Assembly: GCA_945861965.1 (NCBI GenBank)
Contig: CAMAWM010000010.1
Coordinates: 996-64,995, forward strand
Direction: 5' to 3'
Length of the DNA stretch: 64,000 bases
From: Chitinophaga pinensis
Lineage (GTDB): Bacteria > Bacteroidota > Bacteroidia > UKL13-3
Shown: piece after piece, positions 1,786 through 56,580 of the stretch
Numbering within the stretch: position 1 is the first letter of the stretch
Layout: each line of letters opens with the position of its first letter
The notes under the pieces: generated by a model
What the model was told of the DNA's origin: nothing
The model's input: the letters and a program-made list of their open reading frames with translations, nothing else
The model's database searches: none
Translations under genes and position numbers: made by a program

Positions 1786-3024
1786 ATGCATAGTGTAGGA
1801 TTAATTGACTCGTTTGGCGAGTTTAAAGAATTTAAAAACATTGACCGCGCAACCTTGCAGCGAGTTTTGGAAGACGTGTTTAGAACCATGTTGCGAAAAA
1901 AATTCGGCACCGATGAAAACTTTGATGTAATCATTAACGACAAAAGCGGTGATTTGGAAATTTGGCAAAACCGAAAAATCGTGCACGATGGCGAAGTGGA
2001 AGATATAAGAACACAAATTGCTTATAGCGATGCGATAAAAATTGAACCCGATTTTGAAATTGGCGAAGATGTAACGGAAGAAGTTGGAATGGCCGTGTTT
2101 GGACGAAGAGCAGTTCTATCAGCCAGACAAACATTGTTGGGCAAAGTACTTGAACTTGAGAAAGACGAATTGTACAAAAAATACAAAGACCGCGTTGGAG
2201 AAATTATTACTGGCGAAGTGTATCAAATTTGGAAAAAAGAAATTATGGTTTTGGACGAAGAAGGCAATGAGTTGTTACTTCCAAAAACAGAAATGATTCC
2301 GGCAGATTACTTCAAAAAAGGAGAATCCACTCGCGCAATTGTACTCAAAGTTGAAATGTTTAATGGATCGCCACGAATTATTTTATCAAGAACATCTGAA
2401 GTATTCTTGGAGCGATTGTTTGAATTAGAAGTTCCAGAAATAATAGATGGATTAATAAACATTAAAAAAATTGTAAGAGAGCCAGGAGAAAGAGCGAAAG
2501 TTGCTGTTGAAAGCTACGATGACAGAATTGATCCAGTTGGAGCATGTGTGGGAATGAAAGGATCTAGAATTCATGGAATAGTTCGCGAATTAAGAAATGA
2601 AAATATTGATGTAATTAATTACACCAGTAATTTACAACTTTTGGTTCAGCGTTCGTTAAGCCCATCAAAAATTACCAGCGTTAAAATTGAAGAAGGAGAA
2701 AAACGTATATCTGTATTTTTAAAACCAGATCAAGTAAGTTTGGCAATTGGCAAAGGCGGACACAACATTAAACTAGCTAGTAAATTAGTTGGCTACGAAA
2801 TAGATGTGTATAGAGATTCAGACGAAACAGAAGAAGACGATATTGATTTGGATGAATTTACAGACGAAATAGACGCTTGGATAATTGACGAATTGAAAAA
2901 AACCGGATGCGATTCAGCAAAATCAGTGTTGGCACTTTCGATTGAAGATTTAGTTAGACGAACTGAGCTTGAAGAAGAAACAGTGATTGAAATACGCAAA
3001 ATTCTACAATCAGAATTTGAATAG
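1786..3024 (+). CDS. nusA: transcription termination/antitermination factor NusA
   Basis: 412 aa with S1 and KH domain signatures (GACVGMKGSRI, AIGKGGHNIKLA) in the conserved rimP-nusA-infB order. Confidence 0.95.
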   Translation: MHSVGLIDSFGEFKEFKNIDRATLQRVLEDVFRTMLRKKFGTDENFDVIINDKSGDLEIWQNRKIVHDGEVEDIRTQIAYSDAIKIEPDFEIGEDVTEEVGMAVFGRRAVLSARQTLLGKVLELEKDELYKKYKDRVGEIITGEVYQIWKKEIMVLDEEGNELLLPKTEMIPADYFKKGESTRAIVLKVEMFNGSPRIILSRTSEVFLERLFELEVPEIIDGLINIKKIVREPGERAKVAVESYDDRIDPVGACVGMKGSRIHGIVRELRNENIDVINYTSNLQLLVQRSLSPSKITSVKIEEGEKRISVFLKPDQVSLAIGKGGHNIKLASKLVGYEIDVYRDSDETEEDDIDLDEFTDEIDAWIIDELKKTGCDSAKSVLALSIEDLVRRTELEEETVIEIRKILQSEFE

Positions 3025-3211
3025 TATTTTATCGATTCGTTTTTTATAAAATGTATTTGTGATAATATTTTAAGAAGAGTACAATGAGAAGCAAATTTTA
3101 ATACCAAGTTTTACCATAGCGTAATTCATTGTTTAGCTTGTACTCTTCACAGTTAATTAAACAAAAAATGCAATATTGCAAAGCAATGTTGTGAAAGAAT
3201 AAAACAATAGA

Positions 3212-6127
3212 ATGAGCGAAGGAACAGGAACAAAAAGATTAAATGCTGTAGTAAAAGAGCTGAATGTGGGAATTCAAACCATAGTGGATCATCTTGCCAA
3301 AAGCGGTCATGCAATTGAGGCAAAACCCAATACAAAAATTACAGATCATCAATACACAATTCTACTGGATGAGTTCCTTTCTGATAAAAAATTAAAAGAA
3401 GAATCTAAACAAATTAAACACGATAGAGTAAAGCAAAAGGACATTACTCTTGACACTTTAAAACCCAAACAAAATGTAATAGCTGAAGAAGATATAGAAG
3501 ACGACAAGATTTTAATTAAATCAGAATTAACAAATAAAATTAGCTCTCCGCCACTTGTCGCGAAAAAGGAAATTAAAGTAGAAACTATAATTGAACCTAT
3601 AGTTAAAGTTTCGCAAAAACCAGAAACCGAAACGCCAAAAATACAAAAAGAAAACGAAGAAGAATTAACAGGTTTAAAAGTTAAAGGCAAAATTGATTTA
3701 GATGCTATAAACACAAAAACACGTCCTGACAAAAAATCAAAAGACAAAAAAGAAAAAGCCGAAACAACAAAACCCGTAAAAAAATCGAAGGTAGTTGCAG
3801 AGGAAATAGTAATAGTTGAACCTCAAAAAGTTGAAACAAAATTAGAGCCACAAGCAACGGAAGAAGAGCAGATAAAAATAAGAGAAACAAAATTTGAAAA
3901 ACTTGGCGGATTAAAAGTTCTTGGTAAAGTTGAATTGCCAATTGAGCCAGTAAAAAAACCAGACGAAAGTTTATCAGACAAAAATAAAAAGAAACGCAAA
4001 CGCACAAATTTTGTCGGAGGTAGCAGTAGTTCAAATGAAAAACTAAATCAGTTTAAAGGCGAAAAACCAAAAGATTTTATTCCGCGTGGCGACAAAAGTT
4101 TTAATCGTCCACCAATTGGAAATACTAGCAACAATCGCTTCGCAAAACGTGGTCCGGATCCACGTGGAAGAGATGCAAAACCTGCAGAAAAACCAGAAAT
4201 TAGCGAAAAAGTAATTCAAGATAAACTTAAAGAAACCTTAGCCAGACTGAATCCAGGAAGCAAAAATGCTAACCTTGGTTCGGTTCGTTCTAAAATTAGA
4301 AAACAGAAACGCGATGCAGCTACAGTTGTTAGAGAAGAGGCTTTAGTTCAAGAAGAAATTGACAAGAAAATATTAAAAGTAACCGAATTTGTTACCGCTA
4401 ATGAGCTTTCAAAAATGATGGACATTAGTGTTACACAAATCATTTCGGCATGTATGAGTTTGGGAATGATGGTATCCATCAACCAACGCTTAGATGCAGA
4501 AACAATAACCATTGTTGCAAGTGAATTTGGATTTGAAATAGAATTTGTTTCTGCCGAAGTTCAAGAAGCAGTTGAAGAAGATATTGATGAGCCGGAAAAT
4601 TTATTGCCACGTGCGCCTATCGTAACAGTTATGGGACACGTAGATCATGGTAAAACATCTTTGCTAGATTACATAAGAAAAGCAAATGTTATAGCAGGCG
4701 AAGCAGGAGGAATTACTCAACACGTAGGCGCTTACGAAGTAAAATTAGATAACGGAAAAAGAATTGCATTTTTGGATACTCCCGGCCACGAAGCATTTAC
4801 CGCAATGCGAGCACGTGGTGCAAAAATTACAGATATTGTAATTGTAGTTGTAGCTGCCGATGATAGTGTAATGCCTCAAACAAAAGAAGCAATTAGCCAC
4901 GCACAAGCTGCGGGTGTTCCAATAGTTTTTGCATTGAATAAAATGGATCGCGATGGAGCAAATCCAGAAAGAATTAAAGAACAACTTTCGGCCATGAATA
5001 TTTTGGTTGAAGACTGGGGCGGAAAATTTCAGTGCCAAGAAATATCTGCAAAAAACGGAACCAATGTTGAAGCCTTGCTCGACAAAGTTTTGCTTGAAGC
5101 CGAGATGCTTGATCTAAAAGCCAATCCTAACAAACGCGCTGTTGGAAGTATTATTGAAGCAACGCTTGATAAAGGAAGGGGAAATGTTACAACCATTATG
5201 GTTCAAGCAGGAACACTAAAAGTGGGTGATCCAATTATAGCAGGTATTCACAACGGACGTGTGAAAGCAATGTTTGACGAACGCGGAAAAAAAATAAGCG
5301 AAGCAGGACCTTCAACACCAGCGGTTATCTTAGGATTTGATAAAGCACCACAAGCAGGCGATAAATTAATTGTAACTAAAACCGAACAAGAAGCAAAAGA
5401 AATTTCGAACAAGAGACAACAATTGCAACGCGAGCAAGGAATTAGAACTCACAAACACATTACACTTGACGAAATTGGAAGAAGGTTAGCCATCGGAAAT
5501 TTCAAAGAATTAAAAATAATTGTAAAAGGAGATGTGGATGGATCGGTTGAAGCATTAAGCGATTCGTTAATAAAATTATCAACCGAAGAAGTACAAGTAT
5601 CTGTAATTTTTAAAGCCGTTGGACCTATTTCGGAAAGCGATGTAATGTTGGCATCGGCTTCAGATGCAATCATTGTTGGATTCCAAGTTCGTCCTTCGCC
5701 ACAAGCTCGCAAACTTGCCGAACAAGAGGCGATTGATATTCGTTTGTATTCTATTATTTACAACGCTATCGAAGAAATTAAATCAGCAATCGAGGGAATG
5801 CATGCAGCCAAAATTGAAGAAAAAATTACGGGCAATGCAGAAATTCGCGAAGTGTTTAAAGTTACAAAAGTTGGAAGCGTTGCTGGTTGTATGGTAACGG
5901 ACGGAAAAATTTTCCGCAATTCAAAAATCAGATTAATACGCGATGGTGTAGTAGTTTATACAAGTGAGCTTACTTCGTTAAAACGATTCAAAGACGATGC
6001 AAAAGAAGTTGTTTCGGGATATGATTGTGGACTTACGATTCATAATTTCAACGACATGAAAGTTGGCGATTTGGTTGAAGCGTACGAAGAAGTAGAAGTA
6101 AAACGTGTTATTGGAGCAGTAAAATAA
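3212..6127 (+). CDS. infB: translation initiation factor IF-2
   Basis: 971 aa with GTPase motifs [13 protein letters not shown] and NKMD, and a K/E-rich low-complexity N-terminal region. Confidence 0.97.
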
Positions 6128-47484: not shown

Positions 47485-48366
47485 ATGAAATTTGCAGCTA
47501 TAGATATTGGTTCAAATGCAGTCCGTCTTCAAATAGTTCGTGTAAATAAAAACGATCCAAATGAACCCTTAAAAAAAATAGAATTTGTTCGCATTCCTAT
47601 GCGATTGGGCGATGATGCATTTAAACAGAAAAAAATAAGCAAAGAGAAACGGAAAGTTTTTGTTACTGCCATGAAAGCATACAAACTTATGATGGATGCT
47701 TTTGGCGTAGATCATTACATGGCTTGTGCAACTAGCGCAATGCGTGAAGCCAGAAATGCAAACGAAATTGTAGCTAAAATTTACGAAAAAACCGGATTGA
47801 AAATTTCAATCATTGACGGAAAACGCGAAAGCGAATTAATTCTGCGATCAATAAAAGGGGTTTTTAAACCCAATGAAAATTATTTAAGCATTGATGTGGG
47901 TGGAGGAAGTACCGAGATGGCCGTAATTAAAAAAGGAAAACTAGTTAATTCGGTATCTTTTGATCTTGGGACTGTCCGATTGATGGATGGTGCTGTAAAA
48001 GAAAAAACTTGGAAAATAATGGAGCATTGGGTAAAACACAAAACACAAAATATTCCCAATCTTTCAGCAGTGGTTACAAGTGGAACCATCAATAAAATTT
48101 CGCATATCATCAATCCCGAAAAGCCAGAAGAATTTACTCGCCAACAACTCAAAAAATTTCACCGCAAGGTTAGCAAAATGAGTTTTGATGAAAGAGTAGA
48201 TGAGTTAAAATTAAATCCAGATAGAGCAGATATAATTGAGATGTCGGCCGATATTTATTTGCGAATTTTAAATTGGGGAAACATTGATAAAGTGTACGCG
48301 CCCGAAACGGCTGGATTAAAAGACGGAATTTTGATGGAGTTGTACGACAAGTACGCGATGGATTGA
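47485..48366 (+). CDS. Ppx/GppA-family phosphatase (short form)
   Basis: 293 aa with AAIDIGSNAVRL and IDVGGGSTE, the ASKHA-fold motifs. Confidence 0.8.
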   Translation: MKFAAIDIGSNAVRLQIVRVNKNDPNEPLKKIEFVRIPMRLGDDAFKQKKISKEKRKVFVTAMKAYKLMMDAFGVDHYMACATSAMREARNANEIVAKIYEKTGLKISIIDGKRESELILRSIKGVFKPNENYLSIDVGGGSTEMAVIKKGKLVNSVSFDLGTVRLMDGAVKEKTWKIMEHWVKHKTQNIPNLSAVVTSGTINKISHIINPEKPEEFTRQQLKKFHRKVSKMSFDERVDELKLNPDRADIIEMSADIYLRILNWGNIDKVYAPETAGLKDGILMELYDKYAMD

Positions 48367-48589
48367 AATCAAATGCATATTTGAGTATTAAATTTTGATT
48401 TAAAAATGCCGCCATTTCAAGAAGTATGAGTTAACAGAAGAAGAAATAAAAATTGTTGAAGCATCTTGATTGTATGCTCAAATATTTGGCAGCTAAAGCT
48501 ACAGAATCAAGTAGTAATAAATACCAAATAGCCAGGTATTTAAAAGATATATCACCTTAGAAAAGGTTTTCTGCTGATAAAAATAAGAT

Positions 48590-48597
48590 TACTTTTG
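48590..48597 (+). promoter_or_regulatory. candidate -7 box (TACTTTTG) immediately upstream of rluB
   Basis: Exact TAnnTTTG match, 8 nt before the ATG at 48605. This would imply a nearly leaderless mRNA. Confidence 0.3.
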
Positions 48598-48604
48598 CCC
48601 GATT

Positions 48605-49984
48605 ATGCCACTACCAAAAAGAAACTATTCGAAACCCGATCGCAGCGAAAAAAAATTCGGTTCATCTTTCAAAAAAACAGGAAGAGGATTTGATTCAGCC
48701 AAGCCCAGATCAGACAATGCAAAACCCTATTTTAAGAAACGAAGCGAAGGCGATTCGTTTAATAAAGACAGCAACGATAGAAGAAAACCTTATGGCGACA
48801 AAGGCGGAGATAGCAAAAGACCGTATGTAAAAAGAAGCGAAGATGCAGGATTTGGCGAAAAGCGAGAATACAAAAAACCTTATGGAGATAAAGGCGGAGA
48901 CGGAAAAAGACCGTATGTAAAAAGAGGCGAAGGAACAGGATTTGGTGAAAAACGCGAATACAAAAAACCATATGTAAAAAGAAGTGAAGGTGCAGGATTT
49001 GGTGAAAAACGCGAATACAAAAAACCATATGGAGATAAAGGCGGAGACGGAAAAAGACCGTATGTAAAAAGAGGCGAAGGCACAGGATTTGGCGAAAAAC
49101 GCGAATACAAAAAACCATATGGCGACAAAGGCGGAGACGGAAAAAGACCGTATGAAAAAAGGGACGAAGGAAAACGATATGGCGACAGAAAATTTTCAGG
49201 AAAAAAATTTGAGAAAAGACCCTATTCAAAAAACAAACAAGAAATTGAAGAAACATCGATAGATGGAGAAATAAGATTGAATCGGTATATTTCAAATGCC
49301 GGAATTTGTAGCCGCAGAGATGCCGATGATTTAATTACAGCAGGATTGGTTTCGGTTAACGGAACAATTGTAACTGAGATGGGTTATAAAGTAAAAGCGG
49401 ATGACGATGTTAGATATAACGGACAACGATTATCTGTCGAAAAAAAAATATACATACTGCTGAATAAACCCAAAGATACCATTACTACAAGCGATGATCC
49501 GGAAGGAAGAAAAACCGTAATGGATTTATTTGAAAAAAAATTAGGACAAAGAATTTATCCTGTAGGAAGGCTTGACAGAAATACAACCGGAGTGTTATTT
49601 CTTACTAACGATGGCGAATTTGCTCAACGTTTAACGCATCCAAAATATGGAATTAGCAAAGTGTATAAAGCCACTTTGGATAAAGTGCTACAAAAATCAG
49701 ATGCTTGGCAAATTGCAAACGGTGTAGAGTTAGAAGATGGATTTATAAAACCCGATGCCATTGCTTTTCCCGAGCCCGAAAATAAAAATGTTATAGGTCT
49801 TCAAATACACAGCGGTCGCAACCGTGTTATTCACCGAATTTTTGAAAGTTTGGGATACATAGTCGAAAAATTAGACCGAACTGCTTATGCCGATCTTACA
49901 AAAACAAGATTGAAACGAGGCGAATGGAGAGAATTAGAAGAGAAAGAATTAAAAACGCTGAAAAGATCCTTAGGAATGCGTTAG
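48605..49984 (+). CDS. rluB: pseudouridine synthase RluB/RsuA family with a long basic repeat-containing N-terminal extension
   Basis: 459 aa. The C-terminal ~240 aa contain an S4 domain (RLNRYISNAGICSRRDAD) and the catalytic GRLDRNTTG. The N-terminal ~215 aa are K/R/G/Y-rich repeats. Confidence 0.85.
   Translation: MPLPKRNYSKPDRSEKKFGSSFKKTGRGFDSAKPRSDNAKPYFKKRSEGDSFNKDSNDRRKPYGDKGGDSKRPYVKRSEDAGFGEKREYKKPYGDKGGDGKRPYVKRGEGTGFGEKREYKKPYVKRSEGAGFGEKREYKKPYGDKGGDGKRPYVKRGEGTGFGEKREYKKPYGDKGGDGKRPYEKRDEGKRYGDRKFSGKKFEKRPYSKNKQEIEETSIDGEIRLNRYISNAGICSRRDADDLITAGLVSVNGTIVTEMGYKVKADDDVRYNGQRLSVEKKIYILLNKPKDTITTSDDPEGRKTVMDLFEKKLGQRIYPVGRLDRNTTGVLFLTNDGEFAQRLTHPKYGISKVYKATLDKVLQKSDAWQIANGVELEDGFIKPDAIAFPEPENKNVIGLQIHSGRNRVIHRIFESLGYIVEKLDRTAYADLTKTRLKRGEWRELEEKELKTLKRSLGMR
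48787..49170 (+). repeat. tandem coding repeat, 90-nt (30-aa) unit, about 4 copies including one shortened
   Basis: The unit encodes PYGDKGGDGKRPYVKRGEGTGFGEKREYKK. Copies start at 48787, 48877 and 48967 (the last is a short copy), and again near 49024 and 49114. Confidence 0.85.
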
Positions 49985-52824: not shown

Positions 52825-52896
<72 letters not shown>

Positions 52897-52905
52897 CAAA
52901 AAATA

Positions 52906-52938
52906 AAAGGTCAACAATTCATTTGTTGACCTTTTTTT
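52906..52938 (+). terminator. rho-independent terminator after tRNA-fMet
   Basis: 12-bp stem AAAGGTCAACAA / TTGTTGACCTTT with a 5-nt loop, followed by a T-run. Confidence 0.8.
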
Positions 52939-53252: not shown

Positions 53253-54665
53253 ATGCAAGAATTAATTTACCTCGAGCAATCTATTTTAAGAAAAATTATT
53301 GAAAATCCGGAAGCATTTGTCCAAACTGTGCACGAATTAAATGATAGGTATTTCAATAATTTATTTCACCGCAAATTGATTGAAAGAATTCGTGATGTTT
53401 TTAATAAGTATAAAGAAAATATTGATTGTGTTTTGCTGCAAAATGAATTGAGCAAATTTGTAAATAATTTAAACACTACAGAAATTCAGGAAATGGAATT
53501 TGTTTTGATGAAACCATTGATTGACAAACAAAAGGTAAAAGCATATCTTGAATTGTTGGGCGAACATTTTCTAAAAAATCAGCTACAAAAAATTGCTGCT
53601 AACATGTCAGAATTATGTAATTCCAAGTCTTATGTAAACCGAAAGGAAATTGAACCTTTCATCAAAAGGTTGGATGCATTATATACTACAAAATACAGTT
53701 CTGAAATTCATGATATTTCAGATTTGTTTCAAGAGTTTTTGAGCGAAATAAATTCAAATAGTAGACCGTATGTAAAAACAGGTTGGAACAATTTCAATAA
53801 AAATTTTCTGGGCATTTATCGTGGATGTATTACAGTAGTTGGAGCAAGGCCAGGAATTGGAATAACTGCTTTTTTATGTAATTTATTGTTAAACACTGTT
53901 GACGAATCAGAATTAAATTACATGATACAAATTGGCGAAAGTAACAAAGGTATTGTTTCATTAATGATGTCATTGATAAGTGGAATTTCTGTATCAGAAA
54001 TAAATAACAATGAATGCATGTCCGAGAAAAATATATCGCTTTTGAAAGAAGCTGAAACCACCATTCAAAAAATGAATCTTGATATTGTTTTTGTTTCTAC
54101 TTTGAGCTTGTATGAATTGGAAAGTATGATTCGTTCCAAAGCTGTTCAGTACAAAATAAAAATGCTTATTGTAGGAAAAATTCAATACGTGTATTTGGAA
54201 AATAAAAGTAAATACATGACCAGAGATCGTGAAATTGGAATCATAATGCAATCGTTAAAAGCACTGGCTATCGAATTGAATATTTGCTTGATACTTGGTA
54301 GTCATGTTTCTCGGTCAGCTGAAAGGAGGGGTAATCTAATGCCAATATTAAGTGATTTAAGAGATAGCGGTTATATTGAAGAGTTTGCAAGCCTTGTGTT
54401 GTTCCTTAATCGCCCAGAAGCGTATGGAATATTTGAGATGGAAGATGGTTCGTCTAGCAATGAAAAATTAATAGTTACTGTTTCCAAAAACGAAAATGGT
54501 GGTTCGGGCAATTGTTTGCTCAGGTATCAATTATTATCACAAAGTGTTACAGATTTTATAGATGAAAATCCATATGAACCAGAAACTAATTTTTACAACA
54601 AGGATACATTTTTGAAACTTATAAATGATTCAAATGAATTTGAAAACAAAACACCTTTTCAATAA
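53253..54665 (+). CDS. DnaB-family helicase paralog with degenerate ATPase motifs (predicted inactive); putative retron accessory/effector protein
   Basis: 470 aa. There is a DnaB N-terminal-domain pattern (LEQSILRKIIENPEAF...FHRKLIERI). The RecA-like C-domain has GARPGIGITAF in place of GARPxMGKTAF, MLIVGKIQY in place of LIVIDYLQ, and then LKALAIELNICLILGSHVSRSAERRG...LSDLRDSGYIEE. Confidence 0.75.
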   Translation: MQELIYLEQSILRKIIENPEAFVQTVHELNDRYFNNLFHRKLIERIRDVFNKYKENIDCVLLQNELSKFVNNLNTTEIQEMEFVLMKPLIDKQKVKAYLELLGEHFLKNQLQKIAANMSELCNSKSYVNRKEIEPFIKRLDALYTTKYSSEIHDISDLFQEFLSEINSNSRPYVKTGWNNFNKNFLGIYRGCITVVGARPGIGITAFLCNLLLNTVDESELNYMIQIGESNKGIVSLMMSLISGISVSEINNNECMSEKNISLLKEAETTIQKMNLDIVFVSTLSLYELESMIRSKAVQYKIKMLIVGKIQYVYLENKSKYMTRDREIGIIMQSLKALAIELNICLILGSHVSRSAERRGNLMPILSDLRDSGYIEEFASLVLFLNRPEAYGIFEMEDGSSSNEKLIVTVSKNENGGSGNCLLRYQLLSQSVTDFIDENPYEPETNFYNKDTFLKLINDSNEFENKTPFQ

Positions 54666-54671
54666 AATATT

Positions 54672-54826
54672 TGCAGGCAGAGAATAGCATGAGTAATTTA
54701 AAAGTATGAGTCTGAAAATGATAAACGCTTTGGGGCGGTGCACCTGCTGCCTTTTGTTCAATGTGACCAACACTGCAAGGCTAGCGCCTTGCATCGACTT
54801 TGGAATAAGATGTTAAACTGCCTGCA
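54672..54826 (+). ncRNA. putative retron msr/msd non-coding RNA template
   Basis: A 9-bp inverted repeat, TGCAGGCAG (54672-54680) / CTGCCTGCA (54818-54826), brackets the whole intergenic region and ends 15 nt before the RT start. There is an internal 8-bp hairpin TGCAAGGC-TAGC-GCCTTGCA (54774-54793). No ORF is present. Confidence 0.6.
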
Positions 54827-54841
54827 TTTTTTAACGACAAT

Positions 54842-55801
54842 ATGAAATTTTATGGAATAAATTATATTAATGATTTGTGCAGTTTACTTAATTGTACTCG
54901 TAAAGAATTATTTGAATTAATACAAAATAGGCAATACACACAATTTACAATTCCTAAAAAGAAAGGAGGGTTTAGACTTATAGAAAGCCCAGACGAAAAG
55001 TTGAAAAAAACGCAAAGAGGAATAGCGGATTTGTTAAATGAAGATTATGCCAATCACAAACCAAAGTGTGTTCATGGATTCGTAAAACATATTTTCCATG
55101 TGCCATCAACAAAAAATATTGGAATCATAAGCAACGCAAAAAATCATGTAGCGAAGAAATATGTTTGGAATATTGATCTGCAAGATTTCTTTCATTCAAT
55201 TACAATAGTTAAAGTTCGCAATCTATTTATGGGTAATATTTTTAAAATGGAAAGAACCAGTGCTGAAGTATTAGCTCTGTTATGTACGCACAATAAAAAA
55301 TTGGCCGTTGGTTCGCCAAGCTCTCCTGTTTTAAGCAATTTTGTATTGTTGAATTTGGATGAAACCTTGCAACAGATTGCTAATATTAATAATTTAACCT
55401 ATAGCCGATATGCCGATGATCTTACCTTTTCAAGCAATGAAATTATTCAAACCGAAACGATGTCTGAAATTAGAATGAATATTGAATCAAATGGGTTTAA
55501 ACTTAATCCTTTAAAAAACCGATTGAAGAAAAATACTCAAAAACAATCTGTTACGGGTTTAAAAGTAAATGTAAAATTAAATGTAGACAGAAAATTTAAA
55601 AGAAAACTTAGAGCTATAAATCATGATATAGATTGCAATGGAATAGCAGCGGCAACAAAAAAATATTTTAAAATGAAATCAGAAGCAAGCAAAGACGATA
55701 TTTCAAAATTTGTACATGCCTACAATGGATTGAGTAATTATTATAGTTTAGTCGTAAATAATGCAAATCAAAAATTTGAAGGATACGAAACGATGAATTA
55801 A
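54842..55801 (+). CDS. retron-type reverse transcriptase
   Basis: 319 aa with IPKKKGGFRLIESP (RT1), NAKNH (the retron NAxxH; 55133-55147), IDLQDFFHSI (RT3), GSPSSPVLSNF (RT4), YSRYADDLTFS (RT5; YADD at 55409-55420) and QSVTGLKVN (the retron VTG; 55550-55558). Confidence 0.85.
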   Translation: MKFYGINYINDLCSLLNCTRKELFELIQNRQYTQFTIPKKKGGFRLIESPDEKLKKTQRGIADLLNEDYANHKPKCVHGFVKHIFHVPSTKNIGIISNAKNHVAKKYVWNIDLQDFFHSITIVKVRNLFMGNIFKMERTSAEVLALLCTHNKKLAVGSPSSPVLSNFVLLNLDETLQQIANINNLTYSRYADDLTFSSNEIIQTETMSEIRMNIESNGFKLNPLKNRLKKNTQKQSVTGLKVNVKLNVDRKFKRKLRAINHDIDCNGIAAATKKYFKMKSEASKDDISKFVHAYNGLSNYYSLVVNNANQKFEGYETMN

Positions 55802-56580
55802 TAAAACCTAGCGCATTTCATTCGCGTAGGAATTCTGTACACTAAGCTGAATGAAGAAATGATGTACCAATCGTTGTAATCAGCATTGCCGCGCTTTTGG
55901 CCAACTCTGCTTTTGAATGCGCCTGTAGCTTCAAATGATCTATCGACAAGATAACTTCGCATAACAGTTTTGTTAGAAATGTCAATGTAGTTGGCGCTGC
56001 AATCGTCTAAATAATCGGTAAATGTTCTACGAAAACCAAGCTGTCCTTCAAGCGACATTCTTCTTGCAAAAATCCATTTTACTCCAACACCAAAAGGAAT
56101 TGAGAAATCAAATTTGCTGTAACTTACATTTTCAGTTCTCCAATCTCGAAGCACAACTTTCGTGCTTCCAAACATGGTTTCAGGACTAAATTTAAATGCA
56201 GAAAGTCCGCCATACACATATCCGGTAATTTTATCATCTAACACTCCGTATCCAAATTTTACAAAATTGAATTCGAAAATGGAAGTGTATTCTGTAACTT
56301 TAGTTGTAAAATCGAGGTTTCGGTTTTTGTTGAACTCAAAATTTTTATCTGTTCCGCTTAAAGTCAAACTTGTTATCTGGTTGTTCCAGGCCCAATTTTT
56401 TGATATATTATAGCGTACAAAAATTGTTGAAGATCCGTGTGTTTCATTCCAAGCAATAGATGGTGCCAAATCGCCCCAATAGTTTGCCAAACCTAGCGAT
56501 AAGCCAAAGTCAACTTTTTGAGATTTTGCAATCTGAAAAGCAAATACAAATAAAATTAAAACTAATTTTTTTTGTTTCAT
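55798..56580 (-). CDS. outer-membrane beta-barrel protein (DUF6089-like), paralog 1
   Basis: 260 aa with a signal peptide, alternating beta-strand pattern, the shared motif TDYLDD and C-terminus C-x-RFY. Confidence 0.6.
   Translation of the reverse strand: MKQKKLVLILFVFAFQIAKSQKVDFGLSLGLANYWGDLAPSIAWNETHGSSTIFVRYNISKNWAWNNQITSLTLSGTDKNFEFNKNRNLDFTTKVTEYTSIFEFNFVKFGYGVLDDKITGYVYGGLSAFKFSPETMFGSTKVVLRDWRTENVSYSKFDFSIPFGVGVKWIFARRMSLEGQLGFRRTFTDYLDDCSANYIDISNKTVMRSYLVDRSFEATGAFKSRVGQKRGNADYNDWYIISSFSLVYRIPTRMKCARFY

Follow-up and report, generated by a model that had tools for sequence, protein, structure and literature searches.

A stretch of DNA 64,000 nucleotides (nt) long from Chitinophaga pinensis (contig CAMAWM010000010.1 of assembly GCA_945861965.1, positions 996 to 64,995; hereafter the window, in which all our coordinates are counted) carries a gene for a protein that resembles the replicative helicase DnaB, followed on the same strand by a candidate non-coding RNA (ncRNA) and a retron-type reverse transcriptase (RT). 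The three together make up a retron, and its DnaB-like member has had every one of the residues used for binding and hydrolysing ATP replaced, while the fold and a DNA-binding loop are still in place. An original prediction, made from the letters of the sequence alone, had described the gene as a DnaB paralog with two dead catalytic positions and a predicted helicase mimic, and much of what follows either extends or corrects that description.

The open reading frame (ORF) proposed at 53253-54665 is real, it encodes 470 amino acids (aa), and the codons for Ile204 and Gly308 lie where they had been placed. The DnaB architecture that had been read from it is also borne out. Pfam recognises both the DnaB_C domain (PF03796, 2.4e-40, at aa 174-426) and the DnaB N-terminal domain (PF00772, 4e-8), and the AlphaFold2 model, for which 92 sequences were aligned, is a confident one (mean predicted local distance difference test, pLDDT, 87.4; predicted template-modelling score, pTM, 0.77), with disorder confined to aa 442-447 and 463-470. 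Foldseek matches the model to single protomers taken from DnaB hexamers (7t21_A and 9dls_C at TMq 0.78; 4esv at TMt up to 0.84), and the predicted structure thus contains a complete DnaB fold: an N-terminal domain at about aa 1-150, a linker helix at about 155-167, a RecA-like domain at 174-437 and a tail at 438-470. It is a distant relation all the same, since identity to the other DnaB-family proteins in the alignment, most of them canonical, is about 21-29%, and the score against the TIGR00665 equivalog (180.6 bits) falls below the cut-off of 385.25. Below, retron-linked proteins are named by locus (L) or protein (P) identifiers.

The ATP site, the DNA-binding loop and the tail

To find the catalytic positions we used a residue-level alignment to the DnaB of Geobacillus (2r6a), which puts Ile204 on K216, the Walker A lysine, and Gly308 on D320, the Walker B aspartate, and which places IEEFAS (aa 375-380) where DnaB has IEQDAD, all as originally claimed. 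Both substitutions therefore stand, but the list was too short, as the catalytic glutamate, the sensor glutamine and the arginine finger have been lost as well (Table 1). The motif LSDLRDSG, which had been taken for the arginine-finger region, is in fact the H4 loop that binds DNA; the true arginine finger falls on E414 and is gone.

Multiple alignments with 120 and with 268 homologs leave this picture intact, and neither places a lysine or an aspartate at the catalytic positions. Among the 120 homologs aligned with MAFFT, the Walker A K, Walker B D, sensor Q, the QDAD residues and the finger R are kept by all but a twin that is 99% identical to the window protein, and across the 268 homologs together with the window protein the Walker B aspartate is present in 267 of 269 sequences and the Walker A lysine in 261 of 269; at each catalytic site the residue of the window protein is rare or unique. 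If one counts the family columns that are at least 85% conserved (n=58), the window protein keeps 37 and loses 21, and the lost ones include M202, K204, the F225-S226-E228-M229 block, D308-Y309-L310, Q351-L352, Q377-D378-D380 and R414. On these alignments, all five residues for ATP binding and hydrolysis are replaced, with every ATP-site residue among the lost columns. A protein from which these five residues are missing cannot be a motor, and we think that this one probably works by binding, not by unwinding DNA.

The conserved columns that survive include the H4 loop (P364 to E376), R354, R359, K336 and K412. The C-terminal end has likewise kept a DnaB-type look, and the term helicase mimic is a fair one for a protein with this fold, this loop for single-stranded DNA (ssDNA) and this tail. 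An acidic stretch followed by Pro-Phe (PF) closes 16 of 31 RT-linked proteins (for example ...DELDDSPF and ...EEEDAPF); the ortholog at L007 ends ...EFPF, and the window protein ends in PF with one extra glutamine. The same acidic PF ending is found in 35 of 80 generic DnaBs, which are the matches listed nearest to the family from a metagenome scan with full-length alignment (L099-L178); those with the ending are about 505-560 aa long and carry the motif PSRMNDM...DDxPF, and it is from length and motifs that we would label them canonical Bacteroidota DnaBs. Since the tail is common to generic DnaBs, it appears to be an ancestral trait of this DnaB branch which the retron proteins have kept. 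In many cases the PF end is preceded by PSRMNDM or RLxEL (L003-L032, L089, L090, L094, L099-L178).

The acidic PF tail of the DnaB-like proteins resembles both the C-terminal tip of SSB, a protein that binds ssDNA (DDDIPF in the tip), and the tails of T7 gp4 and gp2.5, which are acidic and end in Phe; these are protein-docking elements. Interactions of the T7 SSB C-tail have been noted in the retron literature (PMC13402713). That so many related DnaBs share such a tail gives, in our view, a starting point of its own for tracing replisome contacts in the Bacteroidota-type branch of DnaBs.

Table 1. Features of the retron and its immediate upstream neighbour, in window coordinates
Feature	Position	Strand	Basis or comment
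DnaB-like gene, 470 aa, retron accessory subunit and putative effector	53253..54665	+	ORF check, Pfam, AlphaFold2, Foldseek
Ile204, codon ATA	53862..53864	+	Aligned with K216, Walker A Lys; GARPGIGIT against GxxGxGKT
Gly228, codon GGC	53934..53936	+	Aligned with E241, catalytic Glu; SLEMS to QIGES, with a Glu at +1
Gly308, codon GGA	54174..54176	+	Aligned with D320, Walker B Asp; hhhhDYLQ to MLIVGKIQ
His351, codon CAT	54303..54305	+	Position of the gamma-phosphate sensor Gln; SQLSR to SHVSR
H4 ssDNA-binding loop LSDLRDSG (aa 366-373), then degenerate IEEFAS	54348..54392	+	Alignments
Glu414, codon GAA	54492..54494	+	Aligned with R420, arginine finger; KxRxG (Geobacillus KQRNG) to KNENG; Lys412 (= K418) kept
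C-terminal tail, low predicted order, ending ...NEFENKTPFQ	54564..54662	+	DnaB-type acidic PF tip plus one Gln
Promoter-like site TTGAAA-17-TAAAAT	54640..54668	+	Consensus match only; directly upstream of the ncRNA
Candidate retron ncRNA (msr/msd)	54672..54832	+	Folding and covariation; within the 176-nt spacer
ncRNA a2 arm TGCAGGCAG	54672-54680	+	9-bp perfect terminal stem with a1
ncRNA conserved segment TATGAGTC		+	After the a2 arm
ncRNA conserved hairpin	54732-54753	+	G+C-rich
ncRNA msd-type hairpin	54774-54793	+	G+C-rich; followed by conserved TAAGAT
ncRNA a1 arm CTGCCTGCA	54818-54826	+	Pairs with the a2 arm
ncRNA T-run	54827-54832	+	After the a1 arm
Retron RT, 319 aa, type XI/XII/I-C-like, no fused effector domain	54842..55801	+	PADLOC, motifs
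YADD of the RT	55409-55420	+	NAxxH and VTG also present
tRNA-Met (CAT)	52825-52897		Upstream of the retron

The retron and its relatives

Membership in a retron had been part of the original prediction, and it is confirmed by the downstream RT, with its YADD, NAxxH and VTG motifs, and by a covarying ncRNA, flanked by a1/a2 arms, that lies between the two genes. In the RT, residues N98, A99, H102, T238 and G239 and the YADD are invariant. PADLOC models for retron RTs match it at 1e-57 to 1e-85, the best being RT-Protease_XI (5e-85), with RT-TIR_XII and RT-Toprim_I-C also among the best (the XI/XII/I-C range is 1e-80 to 1e-85). The match to RT-Protease_XI covers positions 2-305 of a 506-aa model and Pfam sees RVT_1 only, so that the fusion of the RT to a C-terminal trypsin-like protease, by which canonical type XI is recognised, is lacking here. 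PADLOC has no model for the DnaB-like protein.

The spacer matches no Rfam family. It follows a design that we find again and again in the loci described below: from 5' to 3', an a2 arm, TTATGA, a short hairpin, a near-invariant hairpin GGTTGTGTTCCTGCAACC, a variable long hairpin, a conserved AAGATAAT, an a1 arm and a T-run. In the window, a candidate for the priming G is that of the conserved TATGA at about 54708. RNAalifold on 23 loci shows that the a1/a2 stem covaries, with compensatory changes at 10 of 10 pairs. When a covariance model was built from loci whose DnaB-like protein consists of DnaB_C only, with the window left out, its sole match in the 64 kb was the window spacer (54688-54769, 28 bits, at a rough E-value of 1e-3); the same model has no match in the generic DnaB loci, and it does not detect the L007 spacer at an equally rough E <= 1, though L007 has a 9-bp a1/a2 stem of its own. 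The T-run after the a1 arm stands directly before the RT start codon in nearly all of about 30 loci, and may act as attenuator or terminator and so fix the ratio of ncRNA to RT.

How tightly the two genes belong together is seen from their relatives. A word-indexed search found one close cluster only (P0001, 99% identity, on two contigs), and an exhaustive search of 1.84 billion representatives added one further real relative, P0121 (45% identity, E = 5e-117), before identity drops to about 30%. P0121, on a JGI contig, is the immediate upstream neighbour of an RT (310 aa, 57% identical to that of the window) from which a spacer of 182 nt separates it, and its P-loop is dead too (GMGVT, K to V; also E to N, Q to S, IEEYAN and R to K), with the Walker B aspartate kept. 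The next-best matches are DnaB_C-only proteins of about 350 aa, and the four that were looked up all have an RT after about 170-190 nt; all six retron-branch relatives checked singly are RT-linked.

The converse search, in which GTDB genomes were scanned with an RT alignment, gave 24 best RT relatives and 56 more distant retron RTs. A DnaB-like gene stands immediately upstream on the same strand in 23 of the 24, the exception (L012) ending at a contig edge, and in only one of the 56 (L040); the spacer measures 150-240 nt in nearly all the DnaB-RT loci found in GTDB. Altogether there are 35 distinct loci with a DnaB-like gene directly upstream of the RT, and the 80 generic DnaB loci listed from metagenomes, taken as a negative control, include none with an adjacent RT of this kind. 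In a neighbour-joining (NJ) tree the DnaB-linked RTs come together as a single clade, apart from other retron RTs, with 97% bootstrap. It is the RT, the a1/a2 ncRNA and this conserved linkage, taken together, which make the locus a retron in which accessory gene, ncRNA and RT follow one another in that order.

The catalytic residues of the 35 RT-adjacent proteins tell a graded story. The Walker A lysine is kept in 30 and the Walker B aspartate in 34, the window protein being its only loss; the sensor glutamine survives in 29 of 35, the arginine finger in 24 of 35 and the canonical catalytic glutamate in just 6 of 35, with an aspartate in 23. All five positions are replaced in the window protein only. 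Around it there are partly eroded proteins, such as L089 (GMGIT, E to G, R to T), L090 (GMGVT, KNETG), L097 and L094/P0149 (E to K, Q to D, R to K), the last of which is found on many contigs. The DnaB_C-only partners that keep Walker A and B (L003-L032) almost always have aspartate for the catalytic glutamate (SFDLS rather than SLEMS) and also carry a lysine after IEQDAD, which together with that aspartate makes a family signature. Public databases name the clusters of P0149 (L094) and P0018 (L004) 'replicative DNA helicase'; since P0149 lacks the catalytic glutamate, the sensor glutamine and the arginine finger, this annotation is probably wrong for it, and it is likely to mislead for the eroded members of the retron-linked family at least.

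Our trees are NJ trees of modest support, and should be read as such. Retron-type proteins split from canonical DnaBs in 72% of bootstraps, and with an identity to the aligned DnaBs as low as that given above the word paralog turns out to be misleading: the gene belongs to a retron-linked branch and is no recent duplicate of the host dnaB. The pairing of the window protein with L007 has 100% bootstrap in the DnaB tree, and a grouping of this pair with the other full-length degenerate proteins 60%, in which long-branch attraction may have a part. The RT tree recovers that grouping in 0% of bootstraps against the 60% of the DnaB tree, and the dead full-length proteins may either share their erosion or have undergone it repeatedly.

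Several observations on the wider set of loci deserve a place here. Among viral contigs only one RT locus (L179; IMG/VR UViG_3300005144_000001, 2910-4822) has a DnaB_C neighbour, and this retron type is therefore not typically phage-borne; the DnaB_C protein of L179 reads GMGRT (Walker A K to R), SSLNR and LEDLTD. Another DnaB_C-only protein with a dead P-loop (P0129, at L092/L093; GMGTT, KNNSG) has no adjoining RT and overlaps a UDG-like gene, which points to some other system making use of an eroded DnaB_C as well. ADP-ribosylglycohydrolase genes lie near the DnaB_C-retron loci L003 and L006, and WYL-domain genes near L004 and L006 (the coordinates of these neighbours are L003 3225-4166, L006 1-1596 and L004 7603-8499), which hints at defence-island surroundings.

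In the window itself, the retron follows a tRNA-Met gene and a terminator-like, bidirectional hairpin with a 13-bp stem (tRNA and hairpin together at 52825-52935). Near the tRNA and on the far side of the RT we found nothing convincing as a direct repeat of the tRNA's 3' end, such as an integration scar would leave, and the dip in G+C content is only slight. The RT stop codon overlaps the end of a convergent DUF6089 gene (55798-56580). By its RF-1, which is 81% identical to that of a metagenome-assembled Bacteroidia bacterium, the host is an uncultured member of the Bacteroidia. Farther upstream, the ORF at 48605-49984 (S4/pseudouridine-synthase) contains an N-terminal tandem array (48784-49185) with periods of 90 and 147 nt and basic KRPYVKR...GFGEKREYKKPYGDKGGDG repeats; its ortholog in the strain at L001 is 410 aa long against 459 aa in the window, so that strains probably differ in how many copies of the repeat they have. 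That strain also has, at L001 841-1275, an IS200/IS605-type Y1 transposase gene between its Ppx-GppA and pseudouridine-synthase genes which is absent from the window (~48366-48605).

What a DnaB without a motor might do

That the gene is a retron accessory subunit seems to us nearly certain. We are much less sure of the mechanism, and the full proposal, that it is a non-catalytic effector which binds ssDNA or msDNA (multicopy single-stranded DNA) as well as protein partners and so blocks replication, is one that we would call evenly balanced. It borrows from what has been learned elsewhere: in other retrons the RT and msDNA keep an effector inactive until phage factors perturb the msDNA (PMC13402713, PMC12819146), the triggers are often phage replication proteins such as SSB or helicases (PMC13402713), and mutants of the DnaB-type helicase RadA in Walker A and in KNRFG are dominant negative (PMC6755099). 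On this model the protein would act stoichiometrically, as a ring or another oligomer on single-stranded DNA. In the resting cell, the DNA so bound would be the retron's own msDNA, held without any need for nucleotide, and msDNA and RT would sequester the protein as they do in other retrons. A phage that perturbs the msDNA or the RT would then free the pseudo-helicase, which could occupy ssDNA at forks, or titrate something that binds the DnaB tail or surfaces (a loader, a primase, an SSB-tail-binding partner). Replication of the phage, of the host or of both might stall as a result, much as under a natural dominant-negative helicase. The original prediction had offered three mechanisms: a decoy or guardee, a poison subunit that would join the host DnaB in mixed rings, and a clamp for the msDNA. 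What we can read from the residues kept and lost favours ssDNA or msDNA binding combined with competition for partners, and makes a close mimic of the host helicase somewhat less likely. In its most specific form, with the pseudo-helicase as the only effector of the retron, held by RT-msDNA and on infection capping ssDNA or titrating a replisome partner stoichiometrically, we hold the model tentatively, as something possible but on the whole rather doubtful.

A number of points weigh against it. Walker A and B survive in most of the family, and the N-terminal domain is missing from many of its members; ATP may therefore belong to the mechanism in its ancestral form, and the dead copies could act in another way or with less effect. 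Full-length proteins of the dead lineage are rare (two clusters at 50% identity in the 1.84 billion representatives), and the DnaB and RT trees conflict over relationships inside the family. Because identity to the aligned DnaBs is so low, it is uncertain that the protein could co-assemble with the host helicase or be recognised by its partners, and the extra glutamine after PF may weaken any contact that depends on the tip. The 64-kb window contains no other DnaB homolog, which means that the host's own dnaB, whose existence in the genome the original prediction had supposed, was not found there.

Two alternatives seem to us unlikely, to about the same degree. The dead DnaB could be a decoy or guardee, a bait for phage helicase loaders, DnaB inhibitors or SSB-tail binders whose binding switches the retron on. 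This would explain why the DnaB fold has been kept, along with N-terminal domain, linker and acidic PF tail, while the enzymatic residues are dispensable, and it would agree with retrons that are triggered by phage replication proteins such as SSB and helicases (PMC13402713); what we have, however, is a divergent, retron-linked branch with about 21-29% identity, no close copy of the host DnaB, and no N-terminal domain in most relatives. Moreover, with only two genes and an RT without an effector domain, no executioner would be left. The other possibility is a structural clamp or chaperone, a ring that binds the particle of msDNA and RT or makes it more stable without being toxic itself, any biological output coming from the RT, the msDNA or unlinked genes. 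A retained ssDNA-binding loop next to lost motor residues would suit such a clamp, but where retrons have been characterised it is the accessory protein that acts as effector (PMC13402713, PMC12819146), and a conserved tail of the partner-binding type suggests contacts beyond the msDNA.

More doubtful still is the view that the retron is degenerating and that its DnaB-like gene is a functionless remnant, although the loss of all catalytic residues, the rarity of the lineage and the extra residue on the PF tip might all be put down to decay. The dead-site gene is under purifying selection: compared with the strain at L001 it shows 6 synonymous and 5 non-synonymous differences, which correspond to a ratio of non-synonymous to synonymous change (pN/pS) of 0.20 (P = 0.01 against neutrality, a test that rests on these 11 substitutions), and with such a ratio it is not a decaying gene. 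The same comparison gives 0.12 for the RT and 0-0.21 for flanking housekeeping genes, and the ncRNA spacer has 0 differences in 176 nt. In addition, three assemblies carry the 470-codon ORF unbroken, the RT retains its motifs, the fold prediction is a confident one, and the 45%-identical ortholog has a full ORF with the same partner RT and the same gene order; this ortholog and the window protein resemble each other most in aa 305-400, a stretch in which the H4 loop lies, and in the C-terminal tail. Finally, a still-active NTPase or helicase that works through non-canonical residues is very improbable, for although the P-loop backbone GARPGxGxT, Thr205, Lys412 and a glutamate at +1 of the catalytic position remain, five independent positions have gone to Ile, Gly, Gly, His and Glu, which are unable to substitute, and no compensating Lys or Asp is evident.

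If the model is true in its most specific form, the family would record, step by step, how a motor protein was turned into an immune toxin that is no enzyme. It would also offer a natural series from intact through partly eroded to fully dead ATP sites with which the role of the DnaB module in retrons can be probed.

Comparison with known systems

The closest structural comparison is with the replicative DnaBs of Geobacillus (2r6a/4esv), E. coli (7t21) and Aquifex (4nmn). These share the three-part architecture of the window protein, with TM-scores of up to 0.84, as well as the H4 loop, Arg354/359 and Lys412, and the acidic PF tail is that of many related DnaBs; of the ATP-site residues K, E, D, Q and R, the window protein has none left, and it is moreover linked to a retron.

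Nearly all characterised retron effectors are, to our knowledge, enzymes or membrane proteins. The retrons Eco2 (RT-Toprim type I-C), Eco8 and Eco7 are instructive here, the window RT being nearest to the XI/XII/I-C models, and in them msDNA and RT restrain an effector (PMC12916289, PMC13402713, PMC12819146), as we propose for the window system; their effectors, however, are nucleases or ATPase-nucleases, whereas the window partner is without catalytic residues. The dominant-negative mutants of RadA/Sms (PMC6755099) are altered in the same classes of motif in which the window protein is altered naturally (Walker A, and KNRxG to KNENG), but the RadA alleles were made in the laboratory and assemble together with the wild-type form of the same protein, and for the divergent window protein and the host DnaB a similar co-assembly is only conjecture.

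Within the family, the intact-motif partners that consist of DnaB_C only (P0003/L003, P0018/L004, L009-L032) have the same gene order, a similar spacer, a homologous ncRNA and an RT of the same clade, and we count an IEQDADK-type region and the acidic PF tail as further likenesses to the window system. They differ in being about 350 aa long without the globular N-terminal domain, in keeping the Walker A lysine, the Walker B aspartate, the sensor glutamine and usually the arginine finger, and in having aspartate in place of the catalytic glutamate.

Our literature search found no paper that joins a DnaB-like protein, anti-phage defence and a reverse transcriptase. The link between retrons and DnaB_C has nevertheless already been proposed computationally, in a bioRxiv preprint of May 2026 (10.64898/2026.05.14.725207) which surveys retron RTs in SPIRE genomes, names a candidate lineage TXI_noncan_h, flags the association of DnaB_C with it and calls the significance of DnaB_C unclear. 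Matched by that description only, TXI_noncan_h and the window system both have a protease-less, type XI-like RT with a separate adjacent DnaB_C ORF, both have an ncRNA of two stem-loops flanked by a1/a2 just upstream of the RT, and both belong to Bacteroidota hosts. The preprint describes DnaB_C as mostly at +1, downstream of the RT, whereas it is upstream in all 35 of our loci, and its main text makes no mention of Walker motifs or of inactivity, while the window protein is full-length and dead at the ATP site. What is new here is this fully ATP-site-dead, full-length member, the graded erosion across its family and the conserved acidic PF tail; and if our proposal is true, a retron whose single partner is a catalytically empty look-alike of a helicase would speak for a way to stop replication that works by binding.

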